Positions 2,282 to 11,170 of a stretch of 64,000 bases of DNA are shown piece by piece. The stretch is from NCBI GenBank assembly GCA_016783665.1, contig JADHWC010000003.1, positions 1,959-65,958 of the forward strand, written 5' to 3'. The notes below the pieces were generated by a model that saw only the letters and a program-made list of their open reading frames with translations, was not told the DNA's origin and did not search any database. Both the position numbers and the translations under genes were made by a program. This DNA comes from Fidelibacterota bacterium. Its GTDB lineage: Bacteria > Fidelibacterota > UBA2242. Numbering within the stretch: the first letter of the stretch is position 1; each line of letters begins with the position of its first letter.

Positions 2282-3556
2282 TTAATATCGGTCATAAATA
2301 TTTTCATAATAAGGCGTTAATAGCCTATAATCACCGAAACCGGTTTCATCAACAAAAACAAACGTTCGGTTAATTTCATAATAGTACCATATTTCGTAAG
2401 GTTTTGATTGGATTTCAAAAGGATGGCGTTCGATATCGTTTGGTGGACCGAACAATATAAATACCATTCCCATATCAGTCTTCCATCCATCCATAAAACC
2501 GGTGAAATGTTCGTTTGAATATTGAATGCGTTTATAATATTCGTTCATAATTTCATTTTCTGTCGTGGCAGGTGATGGATCACGCTGTTTCCAGAATTTA
2601 ATAAATTTCTCTTTCTTTTCTTTTGGTTTGGATTTTTGCAGGTCTTTGATAACTTTTGTGTTGGTGATATATTTCAGTTGTTCAATTGCATCGTCGAGGT
2701 TATCGATGAGTTTAGACATACCGAGCCAGCGTAATTGAAAGACCCGCTCGCTTGTGATCTGATCCTCTCCGATATTTATTGTGATGGAAATACGGTATTT
2801 GGCAAAACCCAATTTTGATTTGTTTATTACCAGCTGTTTTTTTGAGATTCCAGTTACAAAAGTATCTTTTTTAGTTGCAGATAATAGTACTTTTTTATCC
2901 ATATCAAAAATGGAATACTTAATGCTACCCAATCCACCTTCGGATAAGATGTCGAACGATACGGTAAATTCCGGTTTACGATCTGTTATAGTGCCTTCCA
3001 CCGATGTAATATCTTCAGTTTCACCAGCTTTATTTTTAATTTTTTGTTCGATAATATTGATATTACTCAGCGTGATTGCTTTTTCGTAAAAATGGCTGAC
3101 GTCAATTTTCTTTTTACGAAAACTGCTCTTTTTAGTGTCCAGGTCAAGTACGCCAATCGTAAGCAGAAATTTGTCAGGCAATACTTTAAATTCGACTTTA
3201 TTCACATCGAATACTTCCCGGGAGTTTGTTTCTTTATAAGATTCAGTGTTCAATTCCTGCCGCCAAATCCTTGACGCGACTTTGGCGTCGTCTTCACTTA
3301 AAAGTAATATGGAAATTTCGTAGCGACCGGTATATTTCCGACCTTTCTTAATAAACTGAATAGCGTCAAAAGGAACTTTAGTAATAACTTCAAGTCGTAT
3401 TGAATCCCTGCTTATCATTGGATAGGTAATAGCTTCATAATAGAAGAAAGGTATATCTGATTTCTCATTATTTTTTGGTTTGTGATCGTCTTTAGCAAAT
3501 CCAACTTCTAACATTGTTAAAATTATTACCGATAATGTGTAGATTTTAATTCGCAT
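2282..3556 (-). CDS. GWxTD domain-containing secreted protein (paralog 1)
   Basis: C-terminus has GWKTDMG...FILFGPP...YEIWYY. A signal peptide begins at an internal Met (MRIKIYTLSVIILTMLEVGFA), so the start is placed at 3556 rather than 3616. Confidence 0.7.
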   Translation of the reverse strand: MRIKIYTLSVIILTMLEVGFAKDDHKPKNNEKSDIPFFYYEAITYPMISRDSIRLEVITKVPFDAIQFIKKGRKYTGRYEISILLLSEDDAKVASRIWRQELNTESYKETNSREVFDVNKVEFKVLPDKFLLTIGVLDLDTKKSSFRKKKIDVSHFYEKAITLSNINIIEQKIKNKAGETEDITSVEGTITDRKPEFTVSFDILSEGGLGSIKYSIFDMDKKVLLSATKKDTFVTGISKKQLVINKSKLGFAKYRISITINIGEDQITSERVFQLRWLGMSKLIDNLDDAIEQLKYITNTKVIKDLQKSKPKEKKEKFIKFWKQRDPSPATTENEIMNEYYKRIQYSNEHFTGFMDGWKTDMGMVFILFGPPNDIERHPFEIQSKPYEIWYYYEINRTFVFVDETGFGDYRLLTPYYENIYDRY

Positions 3557-5213
3557 AGCGCCTCCATTGGTACTTGGTGAGTCCATTATCGGTTCCAAAC
3601 CATACTTGCTCACCATCTATTAAAACCTTATATATAAAATTACCTGCCAATCCATCTGACATTGTGTAATGTTCAGTATAAAAATCATCGATACGCACTA
3701 AAAATGCTCCATTATCCGTACCAACCCATAAATATTTTTTATCAACGGACATATCAAAAATATAAGAATTGGTCACAGGAATGACCTGGGGAATCGAAGT
3801 AAATATTTTTTTTGCATGATGATACATCAATAATCCGCCATACCGGGAAAAGATCGTTACCGAATCGTTTGATGCTATGGAATTCACATTCGACGCAACT
3901 GCTTCATCAATATCAATTCTTTCCCCAAACATATCGTAATGTTCGACATTATGAGTTAATTTGTCAATGGAATATAGACCATTATTTGTTCCTATCCAGA
4001 TAATATCCTTTGAACAAAGAACCTTATATATTTTCATTTTTTGTCTGTCGCGTGTCAGATAAACTCTTTTAATGGCGAAGGAAGGCAGCTTAATCTTATT
4101 AAGCCCAAGGGGCGTTCCTATCCAGGCAAGCGTGTCTTCCAGGGCGATTGTCCATACAATCTCATCCTGCAGCCCTTTTGTCATGGAATACCGTTTCCAA
4201 TAGTTCTTATGATAATTATAAATCGACAGTCCCTGATCAGTGCCAATCCACAGCCGCTTATCATTATATGCGATATCATTTACTATTTCAGATGCTAATT
4301 CGGGGATTAATTCAGTTTCTAAGTATTCCCAGCTGTCATTATCGAGATCATAGACAGAAATTCCGGATCGGTTAAATAGAGTTTGTAAATTTTTAGAACT
4401 ACTTCCCATCCAAAGTCTGTCATCGGAGAGAGTTAAGGCATTTATGGAATTTTGCATCGGACCTTTTGAATAGACGGTCATATTTTTTACATTCATATCA
4501 CCTTCAAATAGACCTAAACCCCAGGCGCCACCGTAAAGATCGAGATTGAAATCAGAATAAAAAACACTCACTGAATATTCACGGAAATCATCATCATAGA
4601 TCAAGCCATCGGCTTCAAACCGGTATGGCTGATTAATGGCAAATTTATGCAATGATGGTAACGGATCAATTCTGCTGGGAGCCCATTTGATTAGATCGGA
4701 CTGTCCGTTAGAAACACTGGAATAAAATCCCAGAGTTTTGCTGATTGATATTATATCACCTTTCGATGTCTGCAGCCATAGATAAGAATTATCCATTCCC
4801 AAGCGAATAATTGACTCAGTATCAGGAATATGGATTTGATCGTTGGAAATATTTTCCCACTTTTCCGCCGAAGGATTTAAATAACTCACACCTGAACTGT
4901 GAGCAGCCCAGATATAATTCGTTGATGGATCAAATAAAACGGCTGTCACAAAATCATCCGCCATTCCATCACTGCTAGTATAAGGTTCCTCCCAGTATCG
5001 TCCGTATTTATGATATGGAATCACGCCACCGCTTGTACCGTAATATATATACTCGTAACCTTCGCTCAGACTCGTTGGAAAATTACAATTTTTATAGCTG
5101 ATCCAATCATCCAGATTATATATTCTGACAGGCGCTGTAAATTCATCGTTAGCGAAGGTTTGTCCGCTAAAAACTAATAGAAGTGATATGATTATAGTGT
5201 ATAAGTTTCGCAT
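3546..5213 (-). CDS. Secreted beta-propeller protein with two-component-regulator-propeller-like repeats
   Basis: 555 aa with an N-terminal signal peptide and repeated W(I/V/F)GT(D)(N/Q)GL motifs (WIGTDQGL, WIGTNNGL, WVGTDNGA, WFGTDNGL). Confidence 0.65.
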   Translation of the reverse strand: MRNLYTIIISLLLVFSGQTFANDEFTAPVRIYNLDDWISYKNCNFPTSLSEGYEYIYYGTSGGVIPYHKYGRYWEEPYTSSDGMADDFVTAVLFDPSTNYIWAAHSSGVSYLNPSAEKWENISNDQIHIPDTESIIRLGMDNSYLWLQTSKGDIISISKTLGFYSSVSNGQSDLIKWAPSRIDPLPSLHKFAINQPYRFEADGLIYDDDFREYSVSVFYSDFNLDLYGGAWGLGLFEGDMNVKNMTVYSKGPMQNSINALTLSDDRLWMGSSSKNLQTLFNRSGISVYDLDNDSWEYLETELIPELASEIVNDIAYNDKRLWIGTDQGLSIYNYHKNYWKRYSMTKGLQDEIVWTIALEDTLAWIGTPLGLNKIKLPSFAIKRVYLTRDRQKMKIYKVLCSKDIIWIGTNNGLYSIDKLTHNVEHYDMFGERIDIDEAVASNVNSIASNDSVTIFSRYGGLLMYHHAKKIFTSIPQVIPVTNSYIFDMSVDKKYLWVGTDNGAFLVRIDDFYTEHYTMSDGLAGNFIYKVLIDGEQVWFGTDNGLTKYQWRRYAN

Positions 5214-5241
5214 ATAAATAAATCTTTTAAATTTAACAGAA

Positions 5242-5372
5242 CATCCCCCTTTTTATTCCCCCTTTACTAAGGGGGATTTTAATTTTCCCCTCTAATAAGA
5301 GGGGTGTCCGGCAGCTGCCGGACGGGGTGTGTTACTCCCTTCACCGAAGGAATGATCTCTTTCATAATCCTC
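5242..5372. repeat. Triple-hairpin repeat copy 1, overlapping the 3' end and stop of the DUF559 gene
   Basis: Three consecutive palindromes: ccccctttactaaggggg, cccctctaataagagggg and ccggcagctgccgg. They recur at 5767-5900 and partially at 5929-5966. Confidence 0.8.
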
Positions 5373-5714
5373 AATCCAATTTCTAATACCTTCTAATACT
5401 TCATCCATATTCTTTTTCACATCAATGTCCGAAAATCTTAAAAACTTAAGTCCAAGGGATTCAAGAAGCTTTCGACGTTTATAATCTACACCCCCTTTAA
5501 ATTCGTGACTCACTCCATCTATCTCAATTATTAAATTTAATTTTGGACAGAAGAAATCGACTATATAATTGTTAATCGGTTTTTGCCTGTGAAAATCATA
5601 GCCTTTCATTTTTTTACATTTTAGATAATTCCATAATAGAACTTCAGACAAGGTGCTATTATTACGGAGCTTTCTGGCAAGTAATTTGAGATGTGGATTG
5701 TAGTAGATTTTCAT
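5292..5714 (-). CDS. DUF559 / endonuclease-domain protein (Vsr-like fold)
   Basis: 140 aa with the typical DUF559 core (LWNYLK...FHRQKPI..YIVDFFCP...IEIDG..H). The last ~25 codons are encoded by the hairpin repeat. Confidence 0.75.
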   Translation of the reverse strand: MKIYYNPHLKLLARKLRNNSTLSEVLLWNYLKCKKMKGYDFHRQKPINNYIVDFFCPKLNLIIEIDGVSHEFKGGVDYKRRKLLESLGLKFLRFSDIDVKKNMDEVLEGIRNWIEDYERDHSFGEGSNTPRPAAAGHPSY

Positions 5715-5766
5715 TTTTGAAACTCGTTATACATTTTTAAAATAACAAGCGGTAAATAGGATATAA

Positions 5767-5966
5767 CATCCCCCTTTTTATTCCCCCTTTAATAAGGGGG
5801 ATTTTAATTTTCCCCTCTAATAAGAGGGGTGTCCGGCAGAGCTGCCGGGCGGGGTGTGTCGCTCTCTTCACCGAAAGAATGATCTCTTTCATAATCTTCG
5901 TTTTAGAAATTAGAATAAATACCAAATCACATCCCCCCTTTTATTCCCCCTTTACTAAGGGGGACT
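5767..5966. repeat. Triple-hairpin repeat copy 2 (5767-5900, including a ~40 bp duplicate of the DUF559 3' coding end) plus partial copy 3 (5929-5966)
   Basis: Near-identical to 5242-5372, ending ...caccgaaagaatgatctctttcataatc; a third truncated copy covers only the first hairpin. Confidence 0.8.
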
Positions 5967-6021
5967 TACAAAGGGTGTTACAATCAATTGTAAAAAATAT
6001 TTTCTCCATCACAAGATGTTA

Positions 6022-7110
6022 TCAATTACGAATAAACATTTTTCCTGCCAGCTGGCGCACGATGCCTTTCAATTCTAAATTGAGAAGTGCCGGAAGCACT
6101 TCGTAGGATGATTTGTGAAGAGTTTCTGCCAACGAATCAATATCTATAGGATCATTCGACAGAGCATCAAAAACTGCTTTTTCAAATCCTTCCAAATCAA
6201 ATTCGATATTCAGTTGTCGGGGCGTACTTGGAAATTTGCGAATGCGATCGATTTCTATCAGAATATCATCGATATTTGTGACAAGTTTTGCACCTTTTTG
6301 GATTAAACGATTAGTCCCTTTACTCTTGATATCATCTAATCTGCCAGGGATGGCAAACACCTCCCTGTTCTGATCAACAGCATAATAAGCAGTCAGGATT
6401 GCTCCGCTCTTTTCGCCTGCCTCAATGACCACAACTCCCAGACTCATACCGGAAATAATACGATTTCGCCGGGGAAAATTGACAGCATCCGGCTTTGTTC
6501 CGATTGGAAATTCCGTACAATATGCTCCGTTTTGAATTATCTGATTTTTTAGTTCACGATTTTCTTGCGGATATATCCTGTCGATCCCATTTCCCAAAAC
6601 TGCAATAGTGCGTCCTCCGTGAAGAAGCGCCGTTTTATGCGCGGCTGTATCAATTCCCCGCGCAAAACCACTGACAATCACGATCTGTTGTTCCACCAAT
6701 CCCTCGACTAAGTCTTCGACAACTTTCTTTCCATAGGAGCTTGGTTTTCGGGTGCCGACTACCGCGATCGCATCAACATCGATTTCAGTAAAGTCTCCCA
6801 TATAATATAGAACTATTGGCGGATCGTATATATTTTTTAATTGAGTTGGATAACTTTCATCGAAAATAGTCGTCAATTTGAATGGACTTTTCTGCAATTC
6901 TATTAACTGTGAATCAACAAAATCCGCTGTATCAGATTTTTTTATAGCTTTCGCCAGGCGATAATCAATTCCGGGAATCCGGCATAATTCATCAATGGAC
7001 GCACCGAAGAACTGCTCGATATTCTTAAAATGCCGCACGACACTCAAAATCCTTCTTGGTCCTAATCCGGGTATCGATAACAATTGCAGCGCTGTTCGTT
7101 GATTATCCAT
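6022..7110 (-). CDS. dprA: DNA processing protein DprA (Smf)
   Basis: 362 aa with the Rossmann-like DprA core GFARGIDTAAHKTAL...GNGID.IYP...SG.S.G.V..EA...SG; overlaps obg by 8 nt. Confidence 0.88.
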   Translation of the reverse strand: MDNQRTALQLLSIPGLGPRRILSVVRHFKNIEQFFGASIDELCRIPGIDYRLAKAIKKSDTADFVDSQLIELQKSPFKLTTIFDESYPTQLKNIYDPPIVLYYMGDFTEIDVDAIAVVGTRKPSSYGKKVVEDLVEGLVEQQIVIVSGFARGIDTAAHKTALLHGGRTIAVLGNGIDRIYPQENRELKNQIIQNGAYCTEFPIGTKPDAVNFPRRNRIISGMSLGVVVIEAGEKSGAILTAYYAVDQNREVFAIPGRLDDIKSKGTNRLIQKGAKLVTNIDDILIEIDRIRKFPSTPRQLNIEFDLEGFEKAVFDALSNDPIDIDSLAETLHKSSYEVLPALLNLELKGIVRQLAGKMFIRN

Positions 7111-8214: not shown

Positions 8215-10089
8215 TTATTTTGTCGCTTCTTCCATTATTTCATTCAAGCGCTGGACGAATTCCGTCGGATTTGTCAAATTGCCATCAATTAACATCGCTG
8301 ATTCATATAGCTGCAGAATTGACTTTCTCAGAAGCGGATCCTTGCTGTCGCCTATATTCAACCGGGACAAATTTTTAATTAAATGATGGACTGGATTTAT
8401 TTCAAGAATCTTTTTCCGGGGTATAACTTCCTGATTCATGATTTTCATCATTCTTTCCATTTGCGGATCCAAGCCATCTTTCCCGACGACCAAAGTCACA
8501 GGTGAATTTACCAGGCGTTTTGAGACTGTCACATCCTCTACTTTATCGCCAAGAGTTTCCTTAAATACCGAAATCAGTGAGTTTGTCATTGTCTCGTTTA
8601 GCGAATCAGCTTCTTCACTGTCTTTATCCTTTTTCTCATCATCCAGCGTGATATCCGCTTTATCGATGGATTTTAAGGGTTTTTTATCATACTCGTTTAT
8701 TGATGGAGTGACAAAAACGTCCACCGGATCAGTCATTAACAATACTTCGATATCATTTTTCCTGAAATATTCAAGATTAGGATTTCTTTCCACAATATCC
8801 CGGTCCTCGCCTGAAAGATAATAAATCTCTCTCTGCTTTTTCTTCATTCGTGTGATATAATCGTCCAGTGATACCAATTCCCCTTTTGGTTTTGCCGTCG
8901 ATTCAAAACGAAGAAGTTTGATAATTTTATCACGGTTTCCAAAGTTACTATTAACACCTGTTTTGAATAGCATACCAAAATTCTTATAGAACTTTTCAAA
9001 TTTGCCGATATCATTTTTTGACCAATCTTCAAGCATATTGATAATTCTGGTGGTTAAAATTGTTTTGATTTTAGCCATAACCGGACTGTGCTGTGTGACT
9101 TCACGAGAGATATTTAATGGTAAATCTTCCGTATCAACAACACCACGAACAAATGTTAAATATTCCGGTAATAGATCTTTAGCATCGTCCTGAATAAAAA
9201 TACGATTTGAATAGAGATGAAGTCCTTTATCTTCAAGATCATAAAAAAGATTCATTGGAGCTTTTGGCGGTACAAACAATAAAGCCTTAAAGTTAACCGC
9301 GCCTTCGAGAGATAGATGCAGATGACCAAGCGGAGCTTCAAAATCATTAGCGACAAACTTATAAAACTCGATCAATTCATCCTCTTTTAATTCATCTTTT
9401 GACCGGCGCCATAAAGCATCAACAGTATTCGCTTTCTCTTTGCCTATTTCAATCGGGAAATCGACAAAGTTAGAATATTTTTTAATAGTCGATTTAACGC
9501 GATAATCTTCACTAAAATCTTTATGTTCATCCTTTAAACGGAAACTGATTGATGTACCCCGTTTCTTACGGTCAATTTCCTCTATTGTAAATGAACCTTG
9601 TCCGTTTGACGTCCAGCGATACCCTTTTGACCCGGGATTAGCGTGACGGGTTTCTATGACTACCTCGTCAGTTACCATAAAAACAGAATAAAATCCAACG
9701 CCAAATTGACCGATTAAATCTCCCTCAGGAACTTTCCCATTTTTCTGTATCTCTTCCAAAAACTTCAACGTACCGGAATTTGCCACCGTACCGATGTTCT
9801 TGATCAGATCTTCTTCGGTCATTCCAATACCCGAATCTTCTATCGAAAATAACTGCTTTTTAGTATCCAAATTTATCGATATTTTCAGATCAGCATCAGG
9901 ATCAGTGATTTCCTGATTCGTTATCTGTAAAAAACGTACTTTATTCAAGGCATCGGAGGCATTGGAGATTAATTCTCTTAGAAATACTTCCGGATGAGTA
10001 TAAAGGGAATGAACAATCAGATGAAGCAGTTGAGTTAATTCTGCTTTAAACTTATAGGTTTTTTTTGATTTAGTCGAATTTTTAGCCAT
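8215..10089 (-). CDS. htpG: Molecular chaperone HtpG (Hsp90)
   Basis: 624 aa with the GHKL ATPase motif LRELISNASDAL near the N-terminus and a typical Hsp90 middle and C-terminal domain. Confidence 0.95.
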   Translation of the reverse strand: MAKNSTKSKKTYKFKAELTQLLHLIVHSLYTHPEVFLRELISNASDALNKVRFLQITNQEITDPDADLKISINLDTKKQLFSIEDSGIGMTEEDLIKNIGTVANSGTLKFLEEIQKNGKVPEGDLIGQFGVGFYSVFMVTDEVVIETRHANPGSKGYRWTSNGQGSFTIEEIDRKKRGTSISFRLKDEHKDFSEDYRVKSTIKKYSNFVDFPIEIGKEKANTVDALWRRSKDELKEDELIEFYKFVANDFEAPLGHLHLSLEGAVNFKALLFVPPKAPMNLFYDLEDKGLHLYSNRIFIQDDAKDLLPEYLTFVRGVVDTEDLPLNISREVTQHSPVMAKIKTILTTRIINMLEDWSKNDIGKFEKFYKNFGMLFKTGVNSNFGNRDKIIKLLRFESTAKPKGELVSLDDYITRMKKKQREIYYLSGEDRDIVERNPNLEYFRKNDIEVLLMTDPVDVFVTPSINEYDKKPLKSIDKADITLDDEKKDKDSEEADSLNETMTNSLISVFKETLGDKVEDVTVSKRLVNSPVTLVVGKDGLDPQMERMMKIMNQEVIPRKKILEINPVHHLIKNLSRLNIGDSKDPLLRKSILQLYESAMLIDGNLTNPTEFVQRLNEIMEEATK

Positions 10090-10287: not shown

Positions 10288-10340
10288 AAAAAGGAAAAGA
10301 GTTAAAAGTGAAAAATGAACAGGCTGTTCCAGTCCAGGCG

Positions 10341-10490
10341 ATTCTGGATACTGGATTCTGGATACTGGATTCTGGATTCTGGATACTGGATTCTAGATAC
10401 TGGATTCTGGATACTGGGTACTGGATTCTGGATACTGGGTACTGGATTCTGGATACTGGGTACTGGATTCTGGATACTGGGTACTGGATA
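10341..10490. repeat. Tandem heptanucleotide array (~21 x [a/t]ctgg[a/g]t) with a 21-bp higher-order unit actgggtactggattctggat x4
   Basis: Direct reading shows attctggatactggattctggat... ending in four perfect 21-mers, in the divergent region between htpG and the receiver/hydrogenase operon. The 79-aa ORF listed here is its translation. Confidence 0.9.
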
Positions 10491-10798: not shown

Positions 10799-11170
10799 AT
10801 GGCGAAAATATTAATAGTCGATGATGACGAAGACTTTGTATCGGCTGTCAATCTCTTACTGAAAAGCAACGGTTTTGATGTTGCAATTGCAAATTCCCGC
10901 CAGGAAGGAATGGAAAAATTTGATGAAGATAATCCGGACCTGGTCTTATTGGACGTGATGATGGATGAACCGGATGACGGATTTGTAATGGCTCAATCGC
11001 TCAAGAAAAAAGCGAAGGACATCCCGGTTCTGATGTTAACAAATGTCGGACAGGTTACAGGTCTGGATTTTGACAAAGACAGTGAAATGGTTCCCGTCGA
11101 TGATTTTGAGCAAAAACCAATTATGCCAAATATATTACTTGATAAAATAAACCAACTTCTTGGCAAATAA
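10799..11170 (+). CDS. Stand-alone response-regulator receiver domain protein (CheY-like)
   Basis: 123 aa: ILIVDDDEDF...LVLLDVMMD (acidic pocket and phospho-acceptor Asp) with AGGAGG RBS; sits immediately upstream of the hydrogenase genes. Confidence 0.8.
   Translation: MAKILIVDDDEDFVSAVNLLLKSNGFDVAIANSRQEGMEKFDEDNPDLVLLDVMMDEPDDGFVMAQSLKKKAKDIPVLMLTNVGQVTGLDFDKDSEMVPVDDFEQKPIMPNILLDKINQLLGK

Follow-up and report, generated by a model that had tools for sequence, protein, structure and literature searches.

Positions 5202-5966 of the window (the whole 64,000-nucleotide stretch of DNA that was analysed) are probably occupied by a very small selfish element, present as three tandem copies that were inserted into the spacer between dprA and a beta-propeller gene in one Marinimicrobia lineage. 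Within the array, 5812-5963 reads as a unit that has lost its interior but kept both ends, 5287-5800 as an intact unit, and 5202-5275 as a left end with its leader. The intact unit consists of an inward-headed left hairpin module, a ~50-nt leader, a ~115-codon DUF559 nuclease gene and an oppositely oriented right module. This architecture of a gene between inverted modules recurs across bacterial phyla together with its deletion derivatives, which suggests that the DUF559 gene-plus-hairpin design is a mobile DNA family that has not been described. The best reading is a selfish nuclease-plus-hairpin element, whose movement, module binding and module cutting we infer from sequence comparison. 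The dprA, DUF559 and propeller genes all lie on the minus strand of 3546-7110, and the features of the locus are as follows.

6022..7110, minus strand: dprA (Pfam DNA_processg_A, 1.7e-80), the upstream host gene, whose stop codon borders the insertion
5967..6021, minus strand: eroded left junction from the dprA stop to the first module, missing from empty sites
5929..5963, plus strand: module 0 (copy 3 of the original prediction), left end of the deleted unit, antisense to the genes
5900..5928, minus strand: 29-nt fragment like the start of the element leader, within the internally deleted unit
5860..5899, minus strand: remnant of the DUF559 3' coding end (EDYERDHSFGEES), matching residues 114-126 of the intact gene
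5812..5859, minus strand: sense module of the deleted unit, with head ACACACCCC, insert hairpin and main hairpin
5766..5800, plus strand: antisense module upstream of the intact gene, its left end, with the head complement GGGGGATGT toward the gene
5715..5765, minus strand: 51-nt leader from the left module to the ATG, conserved with copies at other loci
5292..5714, minus strand: intact DUF559 / Vsr-like PD-(D/E)xK nuclease gene, 140 codons (Pfam PF04480, 7.3e-31)
5287..5332, minus strand: sense module at the DUF559 3' end (hairpins 3 and 2 of the original prediction), right end of the intact unit
5241..5275, plus strand: antisense module past the DUF559 gene (hairpin 1, in copy 1), left end of the third, truncated unit
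5202..5240, minus strand: trailing leader-like sequence, overlapping the propeller gene at its start codon and first four codons
3546..5213, minus strand: beta-propeller gene (Pfam Reg_prop), the downstream host gene, syntenic in empty-site relatives

The original prediction, made from this sequence alone, had described a DUF559 gene bracketed by direct copies of a ~130-nt triple-hairpin repeat, and direct hairpin repeats do bracket the gene. Copy 1 (5228-5372) and copy 2 (5753-5899) are ~145-nt repeats with 90-93% identity and a 2-bp indel between them near 5839, and a truncated copy 3 lies at 5916-5967. As had been proposed, copy 1 overlaps the 3' end of the gene, beginning at codon 114/115 and spanning the last ~27 codons and the stop codon, which hairpin 2 holds in its loop. 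The end of copy 2 lies 51 nt before the ATG, and this copy includes the duplicated coding fragment, EDYERDHSFGEES, matching the gene's own EDYERDHSFGEGS. Each repeat is a composite of ~13 codons of the DUF559 3' end and two ~35-45-nt modules, and what had been taken for one direct repeat is the junction between units, made up of the 3' coding end, the right module, a 10-nt spacer and the left module of the next unit. The triple hairpin does not hold up as a single unit, being two oppositely oriented modules: a sense module at 5287-5332, with hairpin 3 as an optional insert and hairpin 2 as the main stem, and an antisense module at 5241-5275 that is hairpin 1. The sense/antisense pair is repeated at 5812-5859 and 5766-5800, and a lone antisense module stands at 5929-5963.

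All of these modules follow one grammar, in which a head (ACAC or ACAT plus a C-run) is followed by a short spacer or an insert hairpin and then by a main hairpin whose left arm opens in the same C-run. On the plus strand, module 0 has the head ACATCCCCCC, a spacer and the hairpin CCCCCTT-TACT-AAGGGGG, and folds alone at -8.5 kcal/mol. The right module of the intact unit carries the head ACACACCCC, the insert hairpin GTCCGGCAG-CTGCCGGAC and the main hairpin CCCCTCT-TATT-AGAGGGG; the sense module of the deleted unit has the same main hairpin and the insert hairpin CCGGCAG-AGCT-CTGCCGG, with a 2-bp insertion, and strains L008 and L094 have GGCTAAAGCC in place of the insert hairpin at 5287..5332. 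The two ends of the intact unit differ in type, with a C5 stem on the left and a C4 stem with insert hairpin on the right, under the same grammar. Shuffles of the 64-kb window gave only 0.00-0.02 expected matches to each hairpin pattern, excluding chance, and the 110-nt unit folded with z = -5.2 to -5.6 relative to shuffles, with the copy 2 fold displaying an alternative pairing of head with stem. No repeat copies or solo modules were found beyond this locus within the 64-kb window, so the module copy number in this genome may be low. A 951-nt region is base-for-base identical in contigs of two other samples, which rules out an assembly artefact.

Between the end modules at 5929-5963 and 5812-5859 lie solely the 29 leader-like nucleotides and the last DUF559 codons, indicating an internally deleted unit that has kept both its ends. 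In strain L095 the same 29-nt fragment and the same deletion junction (tctaaaacGRAGATTATGAAAGAG) are found downstream of the intact gene, whereas in the window the deleted unit lies upstream. The ORF of the intact unit reads into its right module, and this bears on the earlier suggestion that the protein has a repeat-derived tail. The DUF559 domain occupies codons 1-114, the next ~13 codons (EDYERDHSFGEGS) are real coding sequence common to close homologues, and codons ~127-140 plus the stop derive from the downstream module. The suggestion therefore holds for the last ~13 residues (NTPRPAAAGHPSY), which are a translated hairpin module and no conserved tail, but not for the preceding EDYERDHSFG, which is genuine coding sequence.

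By the source names of its DprA and DUF559 homologues, the organism belongs with the Marinimicrobia (Fidelibacterota). Marinimicrobia relatives with DprA proteins 70-73% identical to that of the window keep the gene order htpG-obg-dprA-propeller-GWxTD-icd. From the dprA stop to the propeller start these relatives have 11 nt (L089-L091) or 63 nt (L092), and neither a DUF559 gene nor modules occur in those four spacers. The ~0.8-kb block in the window is therefore an insertion relative to these empty sites. At the occupied dprA locus, one intact unit is present in L094, and single units also occur in L008 and L009, where the insert hairpins differ or a further insert is present; L008 also has a degenerate module end at the position equivalent to the eroded left junction. 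A frameshift was considered for the L008 gene and rejected, as its 114-codon domain is intact and the 90-residue protein is a short gene call.

The element is also present at other loci, in copies 82-90% identical to the window at the nucleotide level. One copy (L097) lies between an unrelated gene and sucC, and L099 likewise adjoins sucC; both are 89% identical. The two have the gene, its flanking modules and >3 kb of sequence downstream in common, and in L099 the contig breaks off within a second DUF559 gene, leaving the 3' end of that gene immediately upstream of the intact one. Homology of L097 and L099 to the window is limited to about -118 to +166 around the gene. A further copy beside a sigma-54 regulator (L003) gives a main alignment of 84% nucleotide identity from -114 to +25, modules further downstream that align as separate segments, and a decayed unit upstream. 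In L101 a right end adjoins yet another gene, and L102 is an array of deleted units without the gene. Homology between unrelated loci extends through the 51-nt leader (5715..5765), and dS between the window and the sucC-locus copy is 0.118, within the range of strains at the same locus (0.08-0.19). A metagenome scan with a lineage-specific end motif returned 7 stretches only; L096 and L100 were set aside because the motif had matched by chance in a high-GC organism.

The repeat family is thus not confined to one locus, since it is also found at L003, L097, L101 and L102, and unit number and order vary between strains. The condition that the original prediction had set for its own refutation, a locus-specific repeat with a C-terminal tail shared by orthologues, therefore does not hold. 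The idea that recombination acts between the repeats is borne out by L094, L095, L099, L008 and L009, which differ in unit number or order as such recombination would produce. Whole-unit differences of this kind are also what unequal crossing-over predicts, and a purely local tandem duplication, by slippage or unequal crossing-over followed by ORF decay, with no mobility and no involvement of the nuclease, would in addition account for a head-to-tail array whose repeats are ~91% identical. We regard this purely local origin as improbable. It leaves entry into an 11-63-nt dprA-propeller spacer unexplained, gives no account of copies that are 82-90% identical, adjoin unrelated genes and share no homology outside the element, and does not predict the repeats that flank most DUF559 genes in other phyla.

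The comparison also took in DUF559 genes across bacteria. A one-genome-per-species scan found at least 550 relatives, and the best 80 loci, from more than 15 phyla and with 49-91% amino-acid identity, were taken. When the upstream flank was compared with the sequence past the domain, a direct repeat was found for 51 of 82 non-redundant DUF559 genes (62%) versus 5 of 148 control ORFs (3%) in the same loci, and the flanking repeats never reach into the nuclease domain. Up to 500 nt from the gene, C4/G4-clamped hairpins have a density of 2.27 per kb, 23 times the 0.098 per kb found elsewhere in 631 kb. Tandem duplication and decay, as originally proposed, describes the local anatomy well (adjacent copies, one internally deleted, one an end); the flanking repeats themselves are general across phyla and no local accident.

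Modules of ~32 nt are 90-100% identical between phyla, for example ACACACCCCTAACCCCTCTCAAGAGGGGAATT, and C5, C6 and insert-hairpin versions all occur. On the upstream side, the module closest to the gene is mostly antisense (41 antisense, 11 sense); on the downstream side it is mostly sense (42, against 17 antisense). The commonest layout places an antisense module just before the ATG and a sense module just past the domain, forming inverted ends with heads toward the gene, and stem type is matched in 21 of 24 clean inverted pairs. No convincing target-site duplication was found around these 24 inverted-end elements; the ATT or AATT beside the hairpins could belong to the end or be a palindromic target. 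Another 17 heads-inward pairs lack a gene, including 5811-5963 of the window, and look like MITE-like deletion derivatives. Gene-less pairs in L044 retain YYNPKLK codons, L047 has three gene-less copies across two intergenic regions, and in other genomes solo modules and deleted units are found at distances of 1-4 kb from the gene.

The length of the C-run is equal in head and stem in 161 of 189 modules. Among distinct long spacers, 37 of 49 form hairpins of their own from unrelated sequences, with a mean of -6.3 kcal/mol versus -1.7 kcal/mol for shuffles. We argue that this combination of matched C-runs and spacer hairpins of unrelated sequence means that the structure itself is selected. Co-evolution between protein clade and module type was also considered and is not claimed here, as protein similarity gives almost no signal (61% vs 58% identity).

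More distant members (35-42% identity) also have flanking repeats. They flank a Neisseria gonorrhoeae gene related to PDB 3HRL and a Picosynechococcus plasmid gene, the last codons of E. coli ycjD are repeated 106 nt downstream of it, and the same layout is present in cultured Runella, Pontibacter and Desulfoferrobacter. A clean empty site could not be claimed for ycjD, because genomes without it carry another island (TetR and RND efflux genes) upstream of fabI. Across plasmid and phage collections, the DUF559 genes are all distant (<=45% identity), so there is no obvious vector.

Genes bracketed by structured repeats, direct or inverted, in strains that gain and lose whole units also bring to mind cassettes moved by a host site-specific recombinase, with the modules as recombination sites and the nuclease as cargo, as for integron attC sites or the Xer-dependent pdif modules of Acinetobacter plasmids. 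This seems to us very improbable. Such cassette systems carry diverse cargo, whereas the cargo here is always DUF559, and no integrase or recombinase gene was found among the neighbours (dprA, obg, propeller, GWxTD). Furthermore, the modules accompany the gene over more than 15 phyla while their heads co-vary with their stems, which points to a dedicated partner rather than many host recombinases.

The DUF559 protein matches Pfam DUF559 (PF04480) at 106.7 bits against a cut-off of 20.6, over residues 9-113 of 140, and PDB entry 3HRL_A with E = 1.2e-17 over residues 21-119. Its score of 76 bits against the NCBIfam DUF559 equivalog PRK09767 is under the 218-bit cut-off, so the window protein is not an orthologue of E. 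coli YcjD. Residues D53, E64, D66, H70 and D96 are invariant in an alignment of 36 homologous sequences and correspond to the catalytic set described for Vsr and EDxHD enzymes (PMC3239194); VSR, DUF559 and 3r3p have been placed in one group (PMC3424549). T:G mismatch nicking relies on this fold and catalytic pattern, as does one family of homing endonucleases (PMC3239194, PMC3424549). The dN/dS values of 0.06-0.55, and ~0.1 in deeper comparisons, show purifying selection on the gene, whose catalytic residues are retained; together with the Pfam and PDB matches, this makes an active nuclease likely. Assignment to a defence system was tried and dropped, as PADLOC models gave just weak matches to unrelated nuclease models.

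Purifying selection is also what would be expected of a host-beneficial, domesticated Vsr-like nuclease in repair or DNA processing, its REP-like regulatory hairpins (as mRNA stabilisers, insulators or antisense terminators) co-inherited as with RAYT genes and the array incidental. Synteny of the gene is preserved across 71-78% diverged flanks in Cytophagales and related Bacteroidota, indicating long vertical residence as for domesticated genes (cf. RAYTs), and a Caulobacter DUF559 protein has been proposed as a Vsr-type mismatch nuclease (PMC12907096). Hairpin 1, in addition, resembles a terminator of antisense transcription. Even so, a domesticated role is an unlikely explanation, given that across loci matched, inverted modules abut the ATG and the end of the domain, internally deleted derivatives with both ends are dispersed, and several insertion sites and an empty site are seen. 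It also counts against this role that no methyltransferase gene lies adjacent to DUF559 among the annotated neighbours.

The strand-specific layout of the hairpins bears on the same question. The original prediction had offered the hairpins as stacked terminators or insulators between dprA, DUF559 and the propeller gene, but on the gene-sense (minus) strand no T-run stands behind any hairpin, leaving insulation between the three co-oriented genes unsupported and counting also against the domesticated-nuclease reading. Hairpin 1 is terminator-like solely on the plus strand, at 5257-5276 and 5782-5801, where the 5241..5275 module is followed by TTTTAATTTT, and it is possible that it blocks antisense transcription.

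Short structured repeats directly upstream of a potentially toxic nuclease gene also recall type III toxin-antitoxin loci, in which case transcripts of the hairpins would serve the nuclease as regulatory or antitoxin RNAs. We give this RNA-level reading hardly any weight. With modules on both sides of the gene and in either orientation, the transcripts expected from them are complementary and not identical; dispersed derivatives lack the gene; the protein has a DNA-nuclease fold; and an Rfam scan of 5100-6100 at a permissive threshold brought no family near its gathering score.

We return to the selfish nuclease-plus-hairpin element. A PD-(D/E)xK nuclease alone is incapable of strand transfer, and the protein is therefore no transposase in the classical sense. 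The simplest model for an enzyme that lacks DNA-joining chemistry has it nick or cut its own modules and leaves the remaining steps to host recombination. The nuclease would recognise its own modules, probably as extruded or single-stranded hairpins, and the module grammar supports recognition of this kind, since the head repeats the sequence of the stem's left arm and would thereby allow two pairing registers. After nicking or cutting, host recombination or gap repair would copy or reshuffle units. Gap repair from a gene-bearing copy would place the gene between modules, incomplete or abortive gap repair would give internally deleted units with both ends, and recombination between repeated junctions would give tandem arrays and strain variants. 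With both flanking repeat copies intact, a simple homing model would have no obvious self-immunity. Further points that tell against a mobile element are the lack of an evident target-site duplication, the differing module types at the two ends of the intact unit, the absence of solo modules elsewhere in the 64-kb window, the weak correlation of module type with protein similarity, and the syntenic position in Cytophagales and related Bacteroidota.

Several features of this arrangement resemble the REP/RAYT and REPIN systems (summarised in PMC3733652), including short units of 30-45 nt, a conserved unpaired tag beside a GC-rich hairpin, frequent inverted doublets, a position flanking the gene of a small nuclease-type protein, and solo copies elsewhere. 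As with RAYT genes, the gene is vertically inherited in some lineages. However, the protein here is a Vsr-like PD-(D/E)xK nuclease with no HUH/Y1 match, whereas RAYTs are HUH tyrosine transposases, and the tag is ACAC or ACAT with a C-run mirroring the stem, in contrast to the GTAG or CGTC of REPs. DUF559 modules are also nearly identical across phyla, and copies are few here (in the 64-kb window) compared to hundreds of REPs per genome.

Insertion sequences and MITEs, especially small IS200/IS605 elements with hairpin ends, likewise have a single small gene between structured ends, and the likeness extends to terminal modules in inverted orientation, insertion at more than one site, an empty site, and non-autonomous copies that have lost their interior while both ends survive. 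Unlike insertion sequences, the element encodes no known type of transposase, be it DDE, HUH, serine or tyrosine, its sole ORF being the PD-(D/E)xK nuclease; no consistent target-site duplication was seen, and tandem arrays are common. To our knowledge, the unit of ~0.45-0.55 kb is smaller than any known insertion sequence. Integron cassettes differ in having an integrase, which is absent from the neighbourhood here, and in not being limited to DUF559 as cargo.

Among nucleases, the Vsr-like EDxHD homing endonuclease I-Bth0305I (PDB 3R3P) shares the fold and the E/D/H/D pattern (PMC3239194), and it is likewise a selfish gene whose spread would need cleavage followed by host repair. The DUF559 element differs in being intergenic and free-standing, not in an intron, intein or conserved gene; its protein lacks an N-terminal NUMOD/HTH DNA-binding region, and intact hairpin modules stand on both sides, with no single recognition site that is split. 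Vsr mismatch endonucleases (E. coli Vsr and the proposed, DUF559-containing Caulobacter VsrA) belong to the same superfamily and have the same conserved catalytic residues, but the DUF559 gene has no cytosine methyltransferase gene adjacent to it and, unlike repair genes, is an insertion with repeated ends.

A literature search on DUF559/COG2852/PF04480, the module sequences and links to REP, RAYT and MITE elements, covering few subscription journals, found no account of the association. The element can be seen as a combination of known kinds, selfish nuclease genes with REP- or MITE-like hairpin repeats; that it forms a distinct class is the stronger reading, and we keep it open. More tentatively still, all DUF559 nucleases, including E. 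coli YcjD and the solved Neisseria protein, could be dedicated enzymes of an unrecognised class of hairpin-module elements across bacteria, a functional counterpart to REP/RAYT or IS200-type systems based on a Vsr-like PD-(D/E)xK fold; the nuclease would recognise a slipped or extruded hairpin with a 5' head repeating the stem's left arm, and the element would spread by break-induced copying instead of transposase chemistry. We hold this generalisation to be possible but doubtful.

DUF559 is a large family without an accepted function, and if its members are nucleases of their own flanking modules, the family would gain a testable role. A nuclease-only element with unusually small units would then be added to bacterial mobile DNA. 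It would also explain an annotation nuisance, in that odd proline- and glycine-rich tails and spurious short ORFs would be translated hairpins, and it would explain assemblies that break at DUF559 genes. The question is experimentally tractable because the layout occurs at E. coli ycjD, in Neisseria gonorrhoeae and in the cultured Runella, Pontibacter and Desulfoferrobacter.

At the downstream edge of the array, the trailing sequence (TCTGTTGAATTTTAAAGATTTATTTATATGCGAAACTTA) also follows the last module by unrelated genes in L101, and it is diverged in L097 and shorter in L102. The insertion lies within an apparent operon, and the propeller gene may owe its start codon to it.

Direct repeats carrying C-run/G-run hairpins also bracket distant DUF559 genes, one in Neisseria gonorrhoeae and one on a plasmid of Picosynechococcus sp. 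PCC 7003.

L103:1029-1755, Neisseria gonorrhoeae DUF559 locus, with the homologue of PDB 3HRL inside the repeats
L104:1052-1679, Picosynechococcus sp. PCC 7003 plasmid DUF559 locus

The Neisseria repeats span ~110 nt and comprise segments of 35 nt and 72 nt that are 91-93% identical, and the plasmid locus has a 38-nt repeat together with three tandem modules. E. coli ycjD (L106:1836-1980), whose neighbours are sapF and fabI, has a second copy of its final ~13 codons 106 nt downstream at 90% identity, a 3'-end duplication of the same kind as that at the DUF559 gene of the window. Of 5426 complete E. coli genomes, 3378 carry the ycjD 3' segment; H57, an E. coli genome without it, instead has a TetR/RND-efflux island upstream of fabI.

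Comparison of the sequences that trail the last module suggested that the inserted element may have contributed the start of its downstream host gene, which encodes the propeller protein. The ATG and first four codons of this gene (window 5202-5213) read ATGCGAAACTTA, and the same sequence occurs within the trailing sequence of L101, a right end of the element where the adjoining gene is unrelated. There the trailing sequence runs on into the hairpin CGAAAC-TTAAATTATTAA-GTTTCG. Beside sucC, the trailing sequence of the L097 copy (compared over L097:2790-2850) is a diverged version, TATACGAAACTTA, without the ATG.

Contigs with close DUF559 homologues were mostly under 2 kb in the homologue match table, and several contigs (among L093, L003-L007 and L009) terminate within modules or directly beside them. 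The L093 contig ends 38 nt past the dprA stop codon, and the contigs of L004-L007 start 254 nt ahead of the DUF559 gene. DUF559 elements appear to break short-read assemblies.

The orthologous DUF559 copy at the same dprA-propeller locus of a related MAG (L009:4001-4342) carries the substitutions D66N, which changes EIDG to EING, and P46Q. Since both fall on positions that are otherwise invariant among the aligned DUF559 homologues, this copy may be inactive despite its intact ORF. Separately, one Roseivirgaceae contig (L023) encodes two DUF559 genes, at 4001-4342 and 5293-5637, 1.3 kb apart. The two are mutually divergent, with 61% and 38% identity to the window protein, and each has modules of its own. 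The pair appears to have arisen by separate arrivals at neighbouring sites and not by duplication.

Elsewhere in the window, the 7-nt unit GATACTG is repeated in tandem for 21.6 copies, an array that also scores as a repeat of 21-nt period, with 93% matches.

8215-10089, minus strand, htpG
10340-10490, GATACTG array, intergenic between htpG and the response-regulator gene
10799-11170, plus strand, response-regulator gene

ORFs that run across the array are purely repeat-derived.
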